Below, piece after piece: positions 1,573 to 21,066 of a DNA stretch of 62,355 nt (positions are counted from its first letter, which is position 1; the number at the start of each line of letters is the position of its first letter). Under the pieces are notes generated by a model. It searched no databases, was not told the origin of the DNA, and was given only the letters and a program-made list of their open reading frames with translations. Location of the stretch: contig JAFVBL010000010.1 of the NCBI GenBank assembly GCA_017479985.1, positions 1 to 62,355 on the forward strand, written 5' to 3'. The stretch is from Alphaproteobacteria bacterium. Lineage in GTDB: Bacteria > Pseudomonadota > Alphaproteobacteria > RF32 > CAG-239. The position numbers were made by a program, and so were the translations under genes.

Positions 1573-2181
1573 TTATGCAGATAAAAGTTCCTGATGTCTT
1601 TGCAAATAGGTTATAAGAGTAGTGCGGCTGACACCGATAATTTGTGCAATTTCTCGCTTACTGTAATTTTGCAATAACATAAAAGAAATGTTTTGTTTTT
1701 GTTTGTCAAGTTTATAGGTTTTATTTAAATGTCCGAGTGGGCGACCGAGTTTATGTCCTTCTTTTTGTAAACGAGACAAAGCTTCTTTTGTACGTTGAGA
1801 AATCAATTTGCGTTCAATTTCAGCAGAAAGAGCAAATGCAAAAGCTAAAACTTTAGATTGAATATCGTCATCTAATCGATAACTGTCTTTAATTGTCCAA
1901 ATTCGCACACCTTTGCTTGAGCATATATTCAAAATACTCATAATTTGGAGTAAATTACGTCCGAAACGAGATATTTCTGAAGCAAGAATCATATCTCCAG
2001 CTTGAATATTTTGTAGCAGAATACCTAATCTGCGTTTTTTATAATCAATTGAACCGTTTGCGATTTCTTTAATCCATCTGTCAATTTTTATTTTGTTTTG
2101 CTGACAAAATTTATGGATTTCAAATTGTTGATTTTTTGTATTTTGTTTATCAGTACTAACACGAATATATCCGTATATCAT
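1573..2181 (-). CDS. Serine recombinase/DNA invertase, Mpi-like
   Basis: MIYGYIRVSTDKQ (catalytic Ser), SEISRFGRN, KVLAFAFALSAEIERKLISQRTKEAL, GRP and a C-terminal HTH. These motifs closely follow Bacteroides Mpi-family invertases. RBS GAAAGGA. Confidence 0.92.
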   Translation of the reverse strand: MIYGYIRVSTDKQNTKNQQFEIHKFCQQNKIKIDRWIKEIANGSIDYKKRRLGILLQNIQAGDMILASEISRFGRNLLQIMSILNICSSKGVRIWTIKDSYRLDDDIQSKVLAFAFALSAEIERKLISQRTKEALSRLQKEGHKLGRPLGHLNKTYKLDKQKQNISFMLLQNYSKREIAQIIGVSRTTLITYLQRHQELLSA

Positions 2182-2219
2182 TATCTTGTTCCTTTCTGTA
2201 ACTGTTAAATGAGGTTTAG

Positions 2220-2421
2220 AAAAAACGTCCGTTTTTATTGAACAAGATTAATAAAATTTCACCTCTTATTCTAGCATAATAATGATTTTTGTCAATGCTT
2301 TTTATAAATATTGTATCAGTATGAAAATATTATAAATTTGTCTATGTACATATAATGTAAAGAACAGCGCCTGCAATACGTAATTTCTCTGCGGTGTGTT
2401 CAATAAAAACGGACGTTTTTT
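2220..2421. promoter_or_regulatory. Invertible DNA segment: perfect 25-bp inverted repeats (2220-2244 and 2397-2421) around a 152-bp spacer
   Basis: AAAAAACGTCCGTTTTTATTGAACA at 2220-2244 and its exact reverse complement at 2397-2421, next to a serine invertase. The core AAACGTCCGT resembles the Mpi-site consensus ARACGTWCGT. Confidence 0.9.
2268..2295 (-). promoter_or_regulatory. Sigma70 promoter inside the invertible segment, pointing at the invertase in this orientation
   Basis: Minus strand TTGACA (2295-2290), 16-nt spacer, TAGAAT (2273-2268), with extended -10 TGn. Confidence 0.8.
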
Positions 2422-2451
2422 TTGAACACACCGCAAATAAGGAGAAAAATT

Positions 2452-3147
2452 ATGATTAGTTATGAGGACGCATTGAAAAAATTTGAAGGCGAAACAATTG
2501 AAATTACGCCGACAGATAAAAAAAGAATCTGCATTCCGATTCATAATCACGTTGGTTCACAAGAAGTTGAATTTACCAGTTGGGATGGTTCTAAACAAAA
2601 AACTGTCGGTTACAAATTTGTAAATCAGACAGATGGTTCAGAACAGGTTGCTGCGGCAAAGGACGGTGTTTTGATGCTGTATGAAGGCAAAACACCGGAT
2701 GGTAAAATGCGTTCAGAAGCAGTTAGGGAATATTTGGATAAGCATCCTTTAGCTGCAAAGACAGCCAGTGGAGTGGAAAAACTTGTAGGTTTTCTGAACA
2801 CGATTGCTATAGGAGATAAAGGTCAATCAGATGTTTATTCGACTGATTTAGGTTTTGTAGCTAAAAAGATTCTGGGCGCACCGGCAAAAGAAGATATTAA
2901 GCCAGGACAGATGATTGTCGGTCAAAAAGTCAGTGCAACATTACAAGCTTTCAGAGTTGGTCCAGGTGTCGAGTTTGAAGGAGCTCCGGGTACGGCTTCT
3001 ACGCAAAAAGCCGGAAAAGACGGTGCTTATATTATCAAAGACGACAGTGGTGCCAGAATGATTCAGACTGCCGAATTTAATCAAGCCTATATGATTACAA
3101 AAAATCCGATAACGATGGGCAGAGACAGCAAAGGACCGCGTGAATAA
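2452..3147 (+). CDS. Hypothetical cytoplasmic protein (231 aa), probable target of the invertible promoter
   Basis: AAGGAG RBS at 2439-2444, ATG at 2452, terminator directly after. No signal peptide or TM. The C-terminal GAYIIKDDSGARMIQTAEFNQAY is weakly reminiscent of PGDYG-type motifs. Confidence 0.75.
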   Translation: MISYEDALKKFEGETIEITPTDKKRICIPIHNHVGSQEVEFTSWDGSKQKTVGYKFVNQTDGSEQVAAAKDGVLMLYEGKTPDGKMRSEAVREYLDKHPLAAKTASGVEKLVGFLNTIAIGDKGQSDVYSTDLGFVAKKILGAPAKEDIKPGQMIVGQKVSATLQAFRVGPGVEFEGAPGTASTQKAGKDGAYIIKDDSGARMIQTAEFNQAYMITKNPITMGRDSKGPRE

Positions 3148-3166
3148 TCTAAACGGTCGAAAGTTG

Positions 3167-3196
3167 AAAAGCAGGAGATTTTTCTCCTGCTTTTTT
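3167..3196 (+). terminator. Intrinsic terminator
   Basis: AAAAGCAGGAGA-tttt-TCTCCTGC-TTTTTT. Confidence 0.85.
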
Positions 3197-3248: not shown

Positions 3249-3548
3249 GTCATTCTGAGGAAGTGAAACGACCGAAGAATATCCTTAGCTGCCGTGCGTC
3301 CTTTCGCAGAAAGAAAAAATGACGACAGTACACTGTATGGCAGGAGATTCTTTGCCTGCGGCTCAGAATGATGTGACTTTTTAAGGAGATTCTTTGCCTG
3401 CGGCTCAGTATGACCGTGTTTTGTTCTGCACGGGGGCTTCGGTTCGGACTACGTCCGCCCAAGAATGACTGTTTTTTCTTCGGGGGATTGTTCGAGGACG
3501 TCTTCGACTCCTCGTTTATGCAAGAGCGGCAATCAATACAAGAATGAG
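3249..3548. repeat. Cluster of REP-like palindromic repeats
   Basis: GGAGATTCTTTGCCTGCGGCTCAG(A/T)ATGA at 3343 and 3385, an inverted partner GTCATTCTGAG...GAAGAATATCC at 3249, and two further units ending AAGAATGA at about 3468 and 3547. Confidence 0.7.
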
Positions 3549-3577: not shown

Positions 3578-4885
3578 TTATATCTTACACAATACCGGAC
3601 TTAAAAGTGCCGATTGTTTGCCGCAGATTGATACAGCCGAACGAATTGCCTTTTCGGCACGGGCAAATTGTTCCTCCGTTTGATAATGCACTATTGCCAA
3701 CGGTGTTTGCGCATCAACATAATCACCGATTTGAGCAAAGTTTGTGTAACCGGTTGCCAAATCAAGTGCTTGCGATGGGGTACTTCGTCCGCCGCAGAGT
3801 TCAATAATACTCAGGCCGACGGCACGGGCATCGACGGCACCGATATAGCCGTTTTTTGCCGCATATATCGGCTTTGTGTGTGCGGCGTGCGGCAAATATT
3901 CTTCATATTTTTCGGCAAAGTCTGTCGGACCTCCGAGAGCCGCAACCATTTGAGCAAATTTTTCAAGTGCCGCACCGGAAGATAATTTTTCCGTTATCAG
4001 ATTGTTTGCTTCCGATAAATTGTTGCAGCGCCGGCAAAGCACCAGAATTTCGGCGCACAGTTCACGTGTGACTTTATCTAAACGCGGATTGATGTTTTTG
4101 CCTTGCAGATATTCCACAGATTCGCGTACTTCAACGGCGTTTCCGGCGGCAAATCCCAAAACCTGATTCATATCGGTCAGCACGGCGCGTGCCTTTGTGC
4201 CGGCACCGTTTGACACATCTATAATGGATTGAGCCAAAGCTTTGGCATCTTCAAAACTTTTCATAAACGCACCGTTGCCGCATTTTAGGTCCATAACCAG
4301 ATATTCCAAACCGGCGGCGAGTTTTTTTGAGAGAATTGACGCCGTAATCAGCGGAATCGACTCAACGGTGCCGCAGACATCGCGAATCGCATAGATTTTT
4401 TTGTCTGCCGGTGCCAGATTGCCGGTTTGCCCGATGATGGCGCAACCGACTTTTTTTACTGTTTTACGGAAAAGTTCATTATCCGCTTGTGTGTTATAAT
4501 TCGGAATTGCCTCAAGTTTATCAATCGTACCGCCGGTATGCCCGAGACCGCGTCCGGCAATCATCGGCACGTATACATCGCAGGCAGCCAGAATCGGTGC
4601 CAGCATCAGACTGACTTTATCTCCGACACCGCCGCTTGAATGTTTATCGACAATCGGCTTGTCAAAACCGTCCCAACGCAAGACATCTCCCGAGTCGCGC
4701 ATTGCCAATGTCAAATCAATGGTTTCGCGTTTGTTCAATCCGTTTAAGAAAACGGCCATTGTCATTGCCGCAACTTGTGTATCATCGACCGTGCGGGAAG
4801 ATATGCCGCCTATAAATTCACGGATTTGTTCGGCGGATAAGACACCTTTATCGCGTTTAATGCGAATAATTTCCTGTGGTAACAT
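3578..4885 (-). CDS. deoA: Thymidine phosphorylase
   Basis: DKHSSGGVGDK, GRGLGHTGGTIDKLE, RDVCGTVESIPLITASILSKK and MDLKCGNGAFM motifs. Confidence 0.95.
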   Translation of the reverse strand: MLPQEIIRIKRDKGVLSAEQIREFIGGISSRTVDDTQVAAMTMAVFLNGLNKRETIDLTLAMRDSGDVLRWDGFDKPIVDKHSSGGVGDKVSLMLAPILAACDVYVPMIAGRGLGHTGGTIDKLEAIPNYNTQADNELFRKTVKKVGCAIIGQTGNLAPADKKIYAIRDVCGTVESIPLITASILSKKLAAGLEYLVMDLKCGNGAFMKSFEDAKALAQSIIDVSNGAGTKARAVLTDMNQVLGFAAGNAVEVRESVEYLQGKNINPRLDKVTRELCAEILVLCRRCNNLSEANNLITEKLSSGAALEKFAQMVAALGGPTDFAEKYEEYLPHAAHTKPIYAAKNGYIGAVDARAVGLSIIELCGGRSTPSQALDLATGYTNFAQIGDYVDAQTPLAIVHYQTEEQFARAEKAIRSAVSICGKQSALLSPVLCKI

Positions 4886-17112: not shown

Positions 17113-17988
17113 ATGGAAAATTTCGGAAATTGTCAGATGGTGAAATTTGAACCTTGCGCGGAAACCGAAGAAAGGTTTGCGGATTTTGCCGAGAATTTTT
17201 TTGAGGTGACGGAAATCAACTATACCGACGACGGGCAGGAACAGCTTATCGGTTATTTGCGGCAGGGTATTGATGAAACACAGATGCTTGATGCGGCAAA
17301 TGCACAGGAAACTGTTTTACCGCCGTATCGTATTGAGGTTTTGGAACGCAAAGATTGGCTTAAAGAAACCGTGATAAAATTTGCACCGGTGGAAACAGAT
17401 GATTTTACGGTTTACGGCATTTTTGAAAATAATGTCGATACACGCGGTAAAATCGGTATTAAGGTATATGCGGCGACGGCATTCGGTTCGGAACATCAAA
17501 CAACCGTCAGTTGTTTGAACGGCATATCCGAAATAAATCGGTTGCAGGCTCATACACCGCAAAAGGTTCTTGATGTCGGCACCGGTTCGGGAATTTTGGC
17601 GATTGCGGCGGCAAAATTGTGGCAAAAGGCGCAAATTGTGGCGGTGGATATTGATGACGAATCGGTGAATGTTACCAAACAAAACGCGGCGGATAATGAT
17701 GTAAACGCGCAAATTACAGCGGCATACAGTGACGGTTACGGTTCCGAAATTGTGCAAAAAAATGCACCGTACGACGTGATTTTTGCCAATATTTTGGCGC
17801 GGCCGTTGATTGCAATGGCGCCGGATATGGCCAAAAATTTGCGAGTCGGCGGTTATGCGGTGATTTCCGGCTTTATTGACGAACAGGTCGACTGGGTTAT
17901 AGGTGAACACGAGAAATACGGTCTGCATCAGGTTAAACTGTATGAAAAAGACCAATGGCGCGCCGCTTTGTTGCAAAGGATTAAGTAA
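17113..17988 (+). CDS. prmA: Ribosomal protein L11 methyltransferase
   Basis: AFGSEHQTT, VLDVGTGSGILAIAAAKL, YDVIFANILA and ISGF motifs. Confidence 0.93.
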   Translation: MENFGNCQMVKFEPCAETEERFADFAENFFEVTEINYTDDGQEQLIGYLRQGIDETQMLDAANAQETVLPPYRIEVLERKDWLKETVIKFAPVETDDFTVYGIFENNVDTRGKIGIKVYAATAFGSEHQTTVSCLNGISEINRLQAHTPQKVLDVGTGSGILAIAAAKLWQKAQIVAVDIDDESVNVTKQNAADNDVNAQITAAYSDGYGSEIVQKNAPYDVIFANILARPLIAMAPDMAKNLRVGGYAVISGFIDEQVDWVIGEHEKYGLHQVKLYEKDQWRAALLQRIK

Positions 17989-19680
17989 ATGAAAATACAG
18001 AAAATTCGTGAAAAAATGAAACAAAACGATATTGACGCTTATGTAATTGCGCACGGCAATCGTTTTATCGGGCAGGATATTTTGCAAAGCGAGCATAAAC
18101 TCAAGACTTTATGCGGTTTTTCCGGTTCTGCAGGAATTGCGGTGGTTACTGCAGATAAGGCGTTTTTATTAGTGGACGGGCGTTATGAATTGCAGGCAAG
18201 GTTTGAAACCAATGCCGATGAAATTACGGTGGTCGATGAGAATCCGCGCTTTAAAAGCGTATGTGATTTGTTGATGCAAAAAAATATAAAGCGTATAGGT
18301 TATGATGCTTGGAATCATTCGGTGGCGGAAATGGAATTTTTAAAGCGCCGTTATCGTGATTTAATATTTATTGATATCGGTGATTGGGTTGAAACGGAAA
18401 GCAATCGGTCGATTGAGGCAAAGGTGCGAGATGTTCGGTTTGCCGGTGTGAGCCGTGAAGAAAAATGCAAAATGGTGACGGCGGAAATTGCTCAACAAAA
18501 TGCGGACTATATGCTGCTGACGTCGGCCGACAGTGTGTCTTGGCTGCTAAATATTTATGCCCGAGATTTGCCTTGTTCGCCGATTGTACGGGCATACGCA
18601 TCAGTGGCAAAAAACGGTGAAATAACACTGTTTTCCAATAATTTGCAAGCAGATTTACCGGTTAAGTCGTGGGCGGATTTTGCGACTTTTCTGCAAACGG
18701 CAGCGGATAAAAAGATTCTTTATGATGCACGAACGGCGCCGGAAAAAATTAAACAAACGGCAAATTCGGCAGCTGTTTTGCTGAAAGTGCCGGATATGTG
18801 TGCAATGCAAAAGGCAGAGAAAAATCCGACCGAGCTGCAAGGTATGATAAATTGCCATATCCGTGACGGTGCGGCGGTGGTCAGGTTTTTGGTTTGGCTT
18901 GATGATAACTGGCGTGGTAAAACAGAGCTTGATGCGGTGGAAAAATTGCATCAATTTCGTGCCGAGCAGGCGTATTTTTTCAGCGAAAGTTTTGAAACAA
19001 TAGTCGGCAGCGGTGCCAACGGTGCGGTTGTGCATTATCAACCGACAGAAGCAAGCAATACCGAACTTAAAGCAAATTCGTTATTGTTGGTTGACAGCGG
19101 CGGACAGTATTTTGACGGCACAACCGATATTACGCGCACAATAGTTATAGGTGAGCCGACAAAAGAAATGATTGCCGATTTTACGGCGGTATTGAAAGCG
19201 CATATTGCGTTGACACGTGTACGTTTTCCGGAAGGTACGGGCGGTATCAAACTCGATACAATGGCGCGCGCCGAGCTATGGCGTATCGGTGCAGATTATA
19301 AGCACGGCACGGGGCACGGCGTGGCGTGTTTCGGTAATGTGCACGAAGGGCCGATAAGTATTTCATCAAACGGAAGCGATTACGGGTTTAAGGCAAATAT
19401 GGTGACTTCAAACGAACCGGGGATATATAAAGAAGGCAAATACGGTATTCGTATTGAAAATCTGCAATATACGGCATCAGTTGCGGGTGCGGAAGGTTTT
19501 TTGGAATTTCGATACCTGACCAAAGTTCCTATTGATAAAAAGCTGATTGATAAATATCTGTTAAGCGGCGACGAGATAGCGTGGCTGAACAAATATCATT
19601 GCGATGTATATGAAAGTTTGGCGCCTTATTTGAATGATGATGAAAAAATATGGCTGAAAGACGCTTGCTCGCCGCTATAA
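17989..19680 (+). CDS. Aminopeptidase P family (M24B) Xaa-Pro peptidase
   Basis: GFSGSAG, DSGGQYFDGTTDITRT, HGTGHGV, SNEPGIY and GIRIEN metal-binding motifs. Confidence 0.93.
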   Translation: MKIQKIREKMKQNDIDAYVIAHGNRFIGQDILQSEHKLKTLCGFSGSAGIAVVTADKAFLLVDGRYELQARFETNADEITVVDENPRFKSVCDLLMQKNIKRIGYDAWNHSVAEMEFLKRRYRDLIFIDIGDWVETESNRSIEAKVRDVRFAGVSREEKCKMVTAEIAQQNADYMLLTSADSVSWLLNIYARDLPCSPIVRAYASVAKNGEITLFSNNLQADLPVKSWADFATFLQTAADKKILYDARTAPEKIKQTANSAAVLLKVPDMCAMQKAEKNPTELQGMINCHIRDGAAVVRFLVWLDDNWRGKTELDAVEKLHQFRAEQAYFFSESFETIVGSGANGAVVHYQPTEASNTELKANSLLLVDSGGQYFDGTTDITRTIVIGEPTKEMIADFTAVLKAHIALTRVRFPEGTGGIKLDTMARAELWRIGADYKHGTGHGVACFGNVHEGPISISSNGSDYGFKANMVTSNEPGIYKEGKYGIRIENLQYTASVAGAEGFLEFRYLTKVPIDKKLIDKYLLSGDEIAWLNKYHCDVYESLAPYLNDDEKIWLKDACSPL

Positions 19681-19695
19681 TCAGCGGAGGGCAAA

Positions 19696-20181
19696 ATGTT
19701 AAAGTTTTTGAGGACGGTATTGGCGGTTTGTTTGCTGTGGCATACACAGGCAAATGCGCAATATATCAATTCGTCGGGAGATAATCCGGCAATCCGAGAA
19801 TATGAGCGCGAAATGCACGAGATGTATCCGAACAGTCCGGAAATGTGGAATCGCGGCATTATGTATATTTTTTATGATGGGCAGAATTGTCCGAAGTGTG
19901 CTGAAATCATTGACATTCTCTATAATATATATAATGTGCGATATGAGGGAGATTACGGTATTTTTGAGGTGGATTATACCGAAGATACGGGTGTCGATTT
20001 TCGGCAGATATACAATTTGACGCAACCGATTTCAGTGGTGTTGGTGCGTGTGCAAAACGGTGAAGCGTGGGGATATGTCAAAATAGATAATCTGTATGAA
20101 TTTGCCGATAATCCGCAACAGTTGGAAGAAATATTTATCAAACAGGCAAATAATTTTACGGTGCCGCAAAATATTATCTAA
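19696..20181 (+). CDS. Exported thioredoxin-like protein
   Basis: Signal peptide; CPKC motif after a beta strand (YIFYDGQNCPKC). Confidence 0.65.
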   Translation: MLKFLRTVLAVCLLWHTQANAQYINSSGDNPAIREYEREMHEMYPNSPEMWNRGIMYIFYDGQNCPKCAEIIDILYNIYNVRYEGDYGIFEVDYTEDTGVDFRQIYNLTQPISVVLVRVQNGEAWGYVKIDNLYEFADNPQQLEEIFIKQANNFTVPQNII

Positions 20182-20238
20182 ATTTTTACCAATTGGCTGT
20201 AAACTGAGCGTTACGAATAATAATGTAACGGCAGGAAG

Positions 20239-21066
20239 ATGACTCAACGGCTGAAATATTTATCACGCATCAAAGATGAGTTTGACACGGTGATTTGCGG
20301 TGTCAACGGGGTTTTTATGCGCGGAGATATCGTAAACCCGACTGCTTTGGATGCGTTGATTAAACTGTATCAGAGCGGCAAAAAGGTGGCACTTGCGTCC
20401 AACACGGGAATGCGTGTGCGCGATTTGTATTATCTTTTAAAACATAATAATGTGCCGATGAATATTTTTTATGCGATGATTACTGCCGGAGAAATCGCAC
20501 ATTTTTATTTGAAAAATAACCGAACAAACGGACAAGCGTATTATAATTTGTCGGGCGGAGAGTCAAAAGCGGCGGCAGGTTTGGATTATATGGCTGCCGA
20601 CAGCTTGGTTATGGCTGACTTTTTGCTGGCGGAAACGCAAAGTTCCGGACTTGAAGCGGTAAAGGTTTTACCGCTTTTGGAACAGGCTCTGCATTTGCAT
20701 TTACCGCTTCTGTGTATCGGTAACAATACCTCTTTGGTCGGGCATAGCGGTGTGATTGAAAGTGTCGGCGCAGTTGCCGAGCAATATGCGATGATGGGCG
20801 GCAAAGTGACGTCGTTCGGTAAACCTGATGTGCGGATTGCATCGTATCTTACGGAAAATATGGGAAAGTTTAAACCGCAATGCTGTTTGGTTATCGGTGA
20901 TTGTATGGCTACCGATATGCGTATGGGCAATGCGTTTGGGGCAAAAACACTGCTTGTCGGCGACGGCGTGCATCAATTAAATGAAGGCAGCGAGCGTCAG
21001 CTTGACGATTTGTCGGTTAATTACGGTTTGAGTGTTGATTATTATACGGAGGCCTTATTATGGTAA
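20239..21066 (+). CDS. HAD-IIA (TIGR01459-like) hydrolase homologue lacking the nucleophile Asp
   Basis: LASN, FGKP and VIGDCMATD motifs are present, but motif I reads VICGVNGV. Confidence 0.8.
   Translation: MTQRLKYLSRIKDEFDTVICGVNGVFMRGDIVNPTALDALIKLYQSGKKVALASNTGMRVRDLYYLLKHNNVPMNIFYAMITAGEIAHFYLKNNRTNGQAYYNLSGGESKAAAGLDYMAADSLVMADFLLAETQSSGLEAVKVLPLLEQALHLHLPLLCIGNNTSLVGHSGVIESVGAVAEQYAMMGGKVTSFGKPDVRIASYLTENMGKFKPQCCLVIGDCMATDMRMGNAFGAKTLLVGDGVHQLNEGSERQLDDLSVNYGLSVDYYTEALLW

Follow-up and report, generated by a model that had tools for sequence, protein, structure and literature searches.

In Bacteroides fragilis, the Mpi invertase (Ssr2/FinA) controls capsular polysaccharide promoters that lie on short invertible segments (~150-230 bp) flanked by inverted repeats whose core is ACG-NN-CGT, and inversion turns the downstream gene ON or OFF. 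Deletion of Mpi locks the invertible promoters of this species (PMC10403206). Here we analyse a locus of similar plan in a 62,355-nucleotide stretch of an alphaproteobacterial genome assembly (contig JAFVBL010000010.1 of GCA_017479985.1), hereafter the window. In this locus, a gene for an invertase of the same enzyme family, as assigned by the NCBIfam model NF009949, and a divergent gene for a 231-amino-acid (aa) protein, hereafter the target, lie on either side of a short segment that carries a promoter between perfect inverted repeats. We consider it likely that the locus is a site-specific inversion switch (inverton) run by the adjoining Mpi-family serine invertase.

The locus also differs from the B. 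fragilis system in several respects. Mpi is global and acts on many dispersed promoters, whereas the window site occurs only twice in its genome and the enzyme appears to be local. The host uses sigma-70-type -35/-10 promoters, compared with the -33/-7 type of Bacteroides; the cargo is a soluble protein instead of glycan loci; and, unlike in the Mpi system, the promoter faces the invertase gene in its other state. The central dinucleotide of the window site is TC, in contrast to the W-containing TA or TT of the putative Mpi consensus.

Other switches share part of this arrangement. The Escherichia coli switches fimS (FimB/FimE), hyxS (FimX) and ipuS (IpuA/IpuB) likewise lie beside a recombinase gene, and in uropathogenic strains the cargo of the invertible hyxS and ipuS promoters includes a cytoplasmic LuxR-type regulator (PMC6083910). 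An earlier note on this DNA, made from the sequence alone, had called a non-surface target atypical for such switches, which is partly right, although these two promoters set a precedent. Expression of FimE depends on switch orientation, termed 'orientational control' in work cited in PMC2845655, and the coupling of recombinase supply to switch state therefore also has a precedent. Unlike the window enzyme, however, the fimS, hyxS and ipuS enzymes are tyrosine recombinases acting on 7-9 bp repeats, and the coupling of FimE operates through transcript fate, not through an invertible promoter that transcribes the recombinase. The proposal that one promoter serves two divergent genes in turn also sets the window apart from all three. 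In gut Bacteroidales, an invertase gene lies beside an invertible promoter with variable cargo, such as resistance genes of integrative and conjugative elements, and the same module can precede different cargo; these cassette invertases were rooted on a tree with Bacteroidales tyrosine integrases, and their promoter lies downstream of the invertase gene (PMC8748976). The window differs in its serine recombinase and in its divergent genes sharing a promoter. Salmonella Hin/hix and phage Gin/gix are likewise serine invertases, acting at 26-bp dyad sites whose 2-bp crossover centre is asymmetric, and Hin too inverts a promoter. The hin gene sits inside its ~1-kb segment and inversion needs a Fis-bound enhancer, whereas the window invertase gene lies outside a 182-bp segment that is too short for the Hin arrangement, which places the locus outside the Hin/Gin group.

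The switch as such is thus already known, since invertible promoters are familiar and Mpi-family genes are annotated in alphaproteobacterial metagenome-assembled genomes (MAGs). In the literature searched, we found no serine-invertase switch in which a promoter alternately serves recombinase and cargo, or which has an orientation-specific anti-Shine-Dalgarno sequence (anti-SD). Part of the interest of the locus lies in this layout, in which a promoter (or a single -35 element in the variants termed type B below) common to recombinase and cargo, together with an anti-SD lock, would couple enzyme supply to switch state.

The earlier note had described an Mpi-like invertase, perfect 25-bp inverted repeats around 152 bp with a specified core, an invertase ATG so near the left repeat that scant room is left for a promoter of the invertase's own, and a strong leftward promoter between the repeats that, once flipped, would read the 231-aa gene. 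All of these sequence features are confirmed by the present analysis. The elements of the switch are as follows.

1573..2181, minus strand: Mpi-family serine DNA invertase, 202 aa, intact (hidden Markov model matches, catalytic residues)
2216..2241: left crossover site, 26-bp dyad TTAGAAAAAACG-TC-CGTTTTTATTGA with centre TC at 2228-2229, read from the sequence
2220..2244: left arm of the perfect 25-bp inverted repeat (repeat search, genome scans)
2230..2411: predicted invertible segment between the central dinucleotides, 182 bp; homologous segments are found in both orientations in a sister clade
2268..2295, minus strand: predicted sigma-70 promoter TTGACA-16-TGcTAGAAT facing the invertase; its -10 ends 86 nt from the invertase ATG
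2397..2421: right arm of the perfect 25-bp inverted repeat (repeat search, genome scan)
2400..2425: right crossover site, 26-bp dyad TCAATAAAAACG-GA-CGTTTTTTTTGA with centre GA at 2412-2413, read from the sequence

The two arms (2220-2244 and 2397-2421) are separated by a spacer of 152 bp, and a repeat search of the window extends them to an inverted repeat of 31 nt with 94% complementarity (2214-2244/2397-2427). In the source assembly (1,179,752 bp in 43 contigs, 83% complete), the 25-mer arm has two copies, both at the window switch, even when up to 3 mismatches are tolerated. Perfect inverted repeats with a spacer of 30-600 bp become rapidly scarcer with length across this genome (94 pairs of 12 bp, 32 of 13 bp, 12 of 14 bp and 3 of 15 bp), and the window repeat is the longest of five outliers above 15 bp. 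Because the background falls off so steeply by 15 bp, the repeat is far beyond chance. Within each arm lies the core AAACGTCCGT. The half-sites of the left and right crossover sites match, and their centres, 184 bp apart, are asymmetric and mutual reverse complements (TC and GA). Serine recombinases acting on Hin/Gin-type sites make 2-bp staggered cuts at the site centre, so that crossover sites in inverted orientation need reverse-complement centres. The interpretation of the window repeats as true crossover-type dyad sites in inverted orientation is thereby supported. A looser AAACGNNCGTTT scan of the source genome gave only unpaired single matches elsewhere, an exact-pattern scan for the repeat core across the genome contig collection returned no match, and the site sequence appears to be specific to the source species.

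The invertase contains a Pfam Resolvase domain (3.5e-30) and a C-terminal helix-turn-helix at residues 163-195. Against NF009949 ('master DNA invertase Mpi family') it scored 279.4 bits, above the cut-off of 272, covering positions 1-198 of 203, and a six-frame genome search with the same model gave 278.9 bits. Residues Y5, R7, S9, R72 and R75 align with Y6, R8, S10, R68 and R71 of Tn3 and gamma-delta resolvase and also with Gin, to which the protein aligns across 190 residues (4m6f); E39 replaces D36 of the resolvases. The closest relatives of the invertase beyond its own cluster (clusters are given P-numbers, and relatives' loci carrying target homologues L-numbers) are 62% identical (P0043, P0049), and no paired sites were recognisable adjoining either. 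Of 18 further genomes of the genus, 16 contained matches to NF009949, one of them (~1.5 Mb) as many as 10, and the strongest Mpi-type matches were frequent. The cut-off was reached by no genome among 12 taken from other families of the class, and by one of 14 control genomes. The invertase repertoire of this genus is expanded. The feature that gives the 'master' family its name, many dispersed invertible promoters, is absent here, as the site pair was found only at the window locus in the 83%-complete genome. Since its sites occur only at two adjacent places, the window enzyme appears to work as a local, dedicated invertase.

The segment promoter, TTGACA-16-TAGAAT with an upstream TG, matches 11 of 12 consensus positions and is the sole site in the segment that passed the promoter scan. 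It faces the invertase, whose ATG is 38 nt outside the left repeat, and the 34-38 nt between the left site and this ATG hold no usable promoter. A second strong match, TTAACA-17-GATAAT at 2208..2180, is unusable for the invertase because its -10 overlaps the ATG. When the segment was flipped in silico, the -10 ended at 2373 and the promoter stood 78 nt before the target ATG (2452), with a predicted transcription start ~16 nt before the right repeat. Since a promoter directed toward the invertase is conserved in the window and in the sister clade described below, and since the gap offers no usable alternative, it is reasonable to infer that the segment promoter drives transcription of the invertase in the assembled state and that little or no such transcription occurs in the flipped one.

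We propose a switch in which invertase dimers would bind both 26-bp dyad sites and synapse, cut at the TC and GA centres and invert the 182 bp between them, a segment that holds the single consensus promoter between the two genes. As assembled, this promoter would transcribe through the left site into the invertase gene, and the 231-aa gene would be promoterless with its ribosome-binding site (RBS) masked by the anti-SD and a hairpin, and thus doubly OFF. In the flipped state, the 231-aa gene would have the promoter 78 nt before it and the anti-SD would have moved away, turning the target ON, and the invertase would be left without a recognisable promoter.

Comparative evidence from related loci is strong. 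A divergent invertase adjoins a target homologue in at least 12 distinct lineages. In a sister clade, designated A' (L023, L024, L048, L003 and L050/L051), whose targets are 85-91% identical to that of the window, the gene order is the same as in the window: invertase on the minus strand, dyad site, a segment of ~120-130 bp, dyad site, RBS and target on the plus strand. Scanning these segments for promoters, with TATAAA and TATAAG also accepted as -10 hexamers, revealed one TTGACA-17-TGnTATAA(A/G) promoter in each. Among A'-type loci, this promoter is directed toward the invertase in L023, L024, L048 and L003, and toward the target in L050/L051 and in L025; the last has no invertase within 1.9 kb. 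Only when reverse-complemented does the L050 interior align to those of L023, L024 and L048 (scores of 50-62 compared with 8-10). The orientation of the outer flanks is unchanged on either side, and the junctions lie at the central AA/TT, a pattern that we read as the trace of repeated site-specific inversion. The toggling of one promoter between invertase and target, as claimed in the earlier note, is supported by this clade, which keeps the layout and has both orientations among different assemblies. Imperfect-repeat switches such as those of A' would probably be missed by detectors that need long, near-perfect inverted repeats, and if this is true, the perfect repeat of the window is for that reason a useful entry point to a larger hidden family of switches.

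Contig ends near the switch (L003, L011, L030, L051) were considered as a sign of mixed orientation and set aside, as the breaks do not coincide exactly with the position of a de Bruijn branch due to inversion. Multi-sample clusters showed no orientation differences within species, each of P0021 (at least 8 contigs), P0018 (3) and P0026 (6) being uniform. In L024 (3001-3678), the target homologue stops 39 aa after its ATG although tblastn aligns residues 1-222, and the adjoining invertase is short, at 181 aa; this locus may be a decaying copy or an assembly error.

A further orientation-dependent feature was found at the level of RNA pairing, involving the following elements.

2188..2196, minus strand: invertase Shine-Dalgarno region GAAAGGAAC, read from the sequence; it can pair with 2240-2248 as assembled
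2384..2390, plus strand: anti-SD TTTCTCT at the inner segment end, predicted to pair with AAGGAGAAA (2439-2447) only as assembled
2390..2435, plus strand: extended palindrome around the right site, with a 14-bp stem of -29 kcal/mol, falling to -11 kcal/mol after the flip
2439..2444, plus strand: target Shine-Dalgarno (SD) AAGGAG, read from the sequence

In the predicted fold of the assembled state, the 2390-2435 hairpin brings TTTCTCT onto the target SD AAGGAGAAA. The predicted folding energy of the 96 nt before and into the target is -33 kcal/mol as assembled, compared with -14.5 kcal/mol in the flipped state, in which the SD is free. A motif resembling CCUCC, TTATCCTCCC or TTATCCCCTG, occupies the corresponding inner segment end in L023, L024 and L048, and it pairs with the SD in the state in which the promoter faces the invertase; in L050, anti-SD pairing appears only after the segment is flipped back in silico. 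Such a conserved, orientation-specific anti-SD would be hard to explain unless the segment inverts with the target as its cargo. The opposite end of the window segment has a counterpart, in that a 9-bp inverted repeat (2183-2191/2240-2248; ATCTTGTTC / GAACAAGAT) joins the inner segment end to the spacer between the SD and ATG of the invertase. The resulting stem over the spacer is paired as assembled and unpaired after the flip in the predicted folds, and it may damp translation of the invertase in the promoter-to-invertase state.

A second form of the switch, designated type B, comprises L004, L028, L031, L034, L035 and L049. The type-B invertases are 73-85% identical among themselves and 47-50% identical to that of the window. 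Their promoter is split, with a -10 element (TGnCATACT, CATAAT or CATATT) fixed outside the target-proximal site. In L004, L028, L031, L034 and L035, a good -35 element (TTGATT or TTGACA, at 17-nt spacing) joins it only once the segment has been flipped in silico at the centres predicted, which places the promoter 38-41 nt before the ATG, and inspection of L049 by eye showed that the flip likewise builds TTGACA-17-TGcCATTAT. The upstream region of L030 aligns to the interior of L004 better when reverse-complemented (49 compared with 26) and carries an assembled TTGATT-17-CATACT promoter, so that L030 appears to be a natural ON form of the type-B switch. The L004 segment also contains, at 3880-3900, a degenerate sequence resembling a third site, TTTTATCGTCTATTA, which departs from the L004 left site by a single-base deletion and may represent either a relic or an additional crossover site.

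The type-B module stands before other cargo too. In the source genome itself, a second Mpi-like invertase (C28:21110-21706, plus strand) is 49.5% identical to that of the window and scores 271 bits, just under the cut-off. It adjoins a type-B split-promoter switch at C28:20852-21109, with sites GGCATAAAACC-AA-CGTTTAAATCAACC and AAACAAACG-TT-CTATTAAAATGACC, which faces a divergent operon (17158-20851, minus strand) of glycosyltransferase-like and Glf-like open reading frames (ORFs), names based on the N-terminal sequences alone. In the assembly, the -35 TTGATT lies beside the operon, which appears to be ON. The first ORF after the switch (C28:20309-20851, minus strand, 180 aa) has a weak match (E 2e-9) to positions 52-198 of the Mpi model, and its product may be a resolvase-like protein without the catalytic N-terminus. 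With a glycosyltransferase operon at C28 and the 231-aa family elsewhere, the type-B module precedes different cargo, as the module of the Bacteroidales cassettes does.

The target-linked invertases fall into at least three lineages that are 47-61% identical to each other. The window enzyme represents the third, being 54-56% identical to those of A', 61% to that of L018 and 47-50% to those of type B, and yet the target beside it shares 90% identity with the L048 target (A') and 87% with the L049 target (type B). A maximum-likelihood target tree intermingles the switch types, with at least four changes required for type B and at least two for A'. Still other variants (L012, L052-54 and L055-60) have fixed promoters, no sites and no invertase. 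L022 (2700-3000; CAVBCV010000024.1) carries two exact AAACGTACGT cores with a palindromic TA centre and a TTGCTT-17-CACAAT split promoter before an 85%-identical target, with no invertase within 3 kb, and the targets of the constitutive L012 and the two-site L022 are nearly identical. The interspersion of switch types on the tree, together with divergent invertases beside near-identical targets, indicates that the target gene has been put under inversion control repeatedly by different modules. The record containing L022 is titled Lachnospiraceae bacterium; since the near-identical L012 and all other relatives are alphaproteobacterial, this label is probably a binning error.

Several points weigh against an inversion switch in the window as proposed. 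L043, the only other assembly of the source species and derived from another sample, has the same orientation as the window. The window segment shows no clear homology to the A' segments in either orientation (scores of 24 compared with 13). For this reason, the A' inversions serve as evidence by analogy, from which we infer inversion in the source species. The invertase is, at 54-56% identity, distant from the A' enzymes. The repeat core AAACGTCCGT matches the putative Mpi consensus ARACGTWCGT, quoted in the earlier note and absent from the papers searched, at 9 of 10 positions, with C at the W. In addition, the transcription start and promoter activity in the source organism are predictions, and weak TATAAT-containing sites on both strands of the segment mean that expression is perhaps not strictly all-or-none.

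In one alternative, the switch is a fossil or effectively locked, with no inversion in the species now, the promoter acting as the fixed promoter of the invertase, and the target silent or weakly expressed. The shared orientation of the two species assemblies fits this view, as do the locked variants within the family with fixed promoters and no invertase (L012, L052-54, L055-60), and L025, in which the promoter is directed toward the target and no invertase lies within 1.9 kb. However, an assembly shows the majority orientation only. Moreover, the arms agree at all 25 positions within non-coding, AT-rich DNA, the invertase has an uninterrupted ORF that retains every catalytic residue, and the target ORF is intact and 90% identical to relatives, which would be unexpected for a permanently silenced gene. 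We therefore consider a locked switch unlikely.

The repeats could instead be operator sites at which the invertase represses the enclosed promoter, inversion being incidental or absent. Tn3-family serine resolvases repress their own promoters at res sites, and here the sites flank a promoter reading into the invertase, with the left site on the invertase leader. Such resolvase-style autoregulation would nevertheless leave unexplained the inverted interior of L050 relative to L048, L023 and L024, the split promoters that are formed only by inversion, and the orientation-specific anti-SD, and it could coexist with inversion instead of replacing it. As the sole function of the sites it was rejected, and we hold it to be very improbable. 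A miniature inverted-repeat transposable element (MITE), a 202-bp unit (2220-2421) inserted between the two genes, would account for the 25-bp terminal inverted repeats, the short AT-rich interior and the MITE-like size, but was rejected as scarcely credible, given that it is single-copy in the genome at 3 mismatches, has no direct repeat flanking the inverted repeats, has a repeat core forming a dyad with the 2-bp asymmetric centre typical of serine-invertase sites, lies 38 nt from an invertase gene and has counterparts, sites and segments alike, in the corresponding position ahead of the target gene in many genomes.

Returning to the inversion switch, the earlier note had further suggested that the OFF state makes recombinase and so biases flipping. 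In this feedback version, the invertase would be made only while the cargo is OFF and its RBS masked, and going ON would remove the enzyme, making ON semi-permanent. The suggestion remains conjectural and, if anything, is disfavoured in its simple form, since a short-lived OFF and an absorbing ON state fit poorly with six of the 8-9 window and A'-type loci being assembled in the promoter-to-invertase state (window, L043, L023, L024, L048, L003). The invertase output may be damped, or the ON state counter-selected. If true, the feedback design would amount to ratchet-like bet-hedging for an intracellular, not a surface, function. That three invertase lineages have repeatedly captured the target gene suggests that expressing it is of benefit at some times and a burden at others. 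A broader proposal, which we offer only tentatively and regard as rather doubtful, is that strong selection for heritable ON/OFF control led at least three Mpi lineages to be recruited independently before near-identical target copies, with ratchet-like bet-hedging of an intracellular function tied perhaps to the large adenosine-deaminase or P-loop proteins that, in relatives, adjoin this domain or are fused with it.

The cargo itself is delimited by two features.

2452..3147, plus strand: target gene, 231 aa, an ORF with no family match
3167..3194, plus strand: terminator-like hairpin with a 12-bp stem followed by a T run, found by inverted-repeat search, closing a monocistronic target unit

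Inspection of the target N-terminus by eye, without use of a predictor, revealed neither a signal peptide nor a hydrophobic segment. Searches of the target against Pfam, NCBIfam, PHROGs and PADLOC gave no match, nor did a sequence-profile search of the PDB. An AlphaFold2 model built with 24 homologues (pLDDT 91.3, pTM 0.77) predicts two beta-rich parts joined by a helical hairpin. A Foldseek search of this model against the PDB found no match with E <0.1, and a search against BFVD returned only weak, uncharacterised phage proteins with TM <=0.27. Homologues of the target form 41 clusters, and an exhaustive profile search gave 93 representatives. The named records are uncultured gut or rumen alphaproteobacterial MAGs, titles that support an uncultured alphaproteobacterium as the host of the window, and the family appears to be confined mostly to uncultured gut and rumen Alphaproteobacteria. 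Distant relatives include large fusion proteins in which a target-like domain follows an adenosine deaminase (P0214), a calcineurin-like phosphoesterase (P0216) or RamC_N + VRP3 (P0200). Stand-alone homologues often have, as their next gene, one for an 844-aa adenosine-deaminase protein or an 894-aa Zeta-toxin-like P-loop protein (loci L052:1667-2493 and L004:5462-8146). None of these fusion and neighbour proteins matched a known defence protein in PADLOC, and an hhalign comparison of the target with the 894-aa neighbour was not significant (2.6% probability). Structure prediction and a search of homologues and their neighbourhoods, both suggested in the earlier note, have thus yielded a confident predicted fold and neighbours, and no PDB match or family.

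Our best guess, held with low confidence, is that the target acts inside the cell as a binding module in partnership with nucleotide-modifying enzymes, and that its expression carries a cost. The combination of a soluble, confidently modelled protein without a PDB, Pfam or PADLOC relative, repeatedly placed under inversion control with rapid turnover of switch type, suggests that the target protein is strongly condition-dependent in some way in uncultured gut Alphaproteobacteria.

Downstream of the target, the window contains three short GC-containing copies of a motif (GCAGGAGATT..CTGC / AGGAGATTCTTTGCCTG) at 3171-3190, 3340-3359 and 3384-3400. The first copy makes the terminator-like hairpin, and the others may be a small dispersed palindromic repeat.

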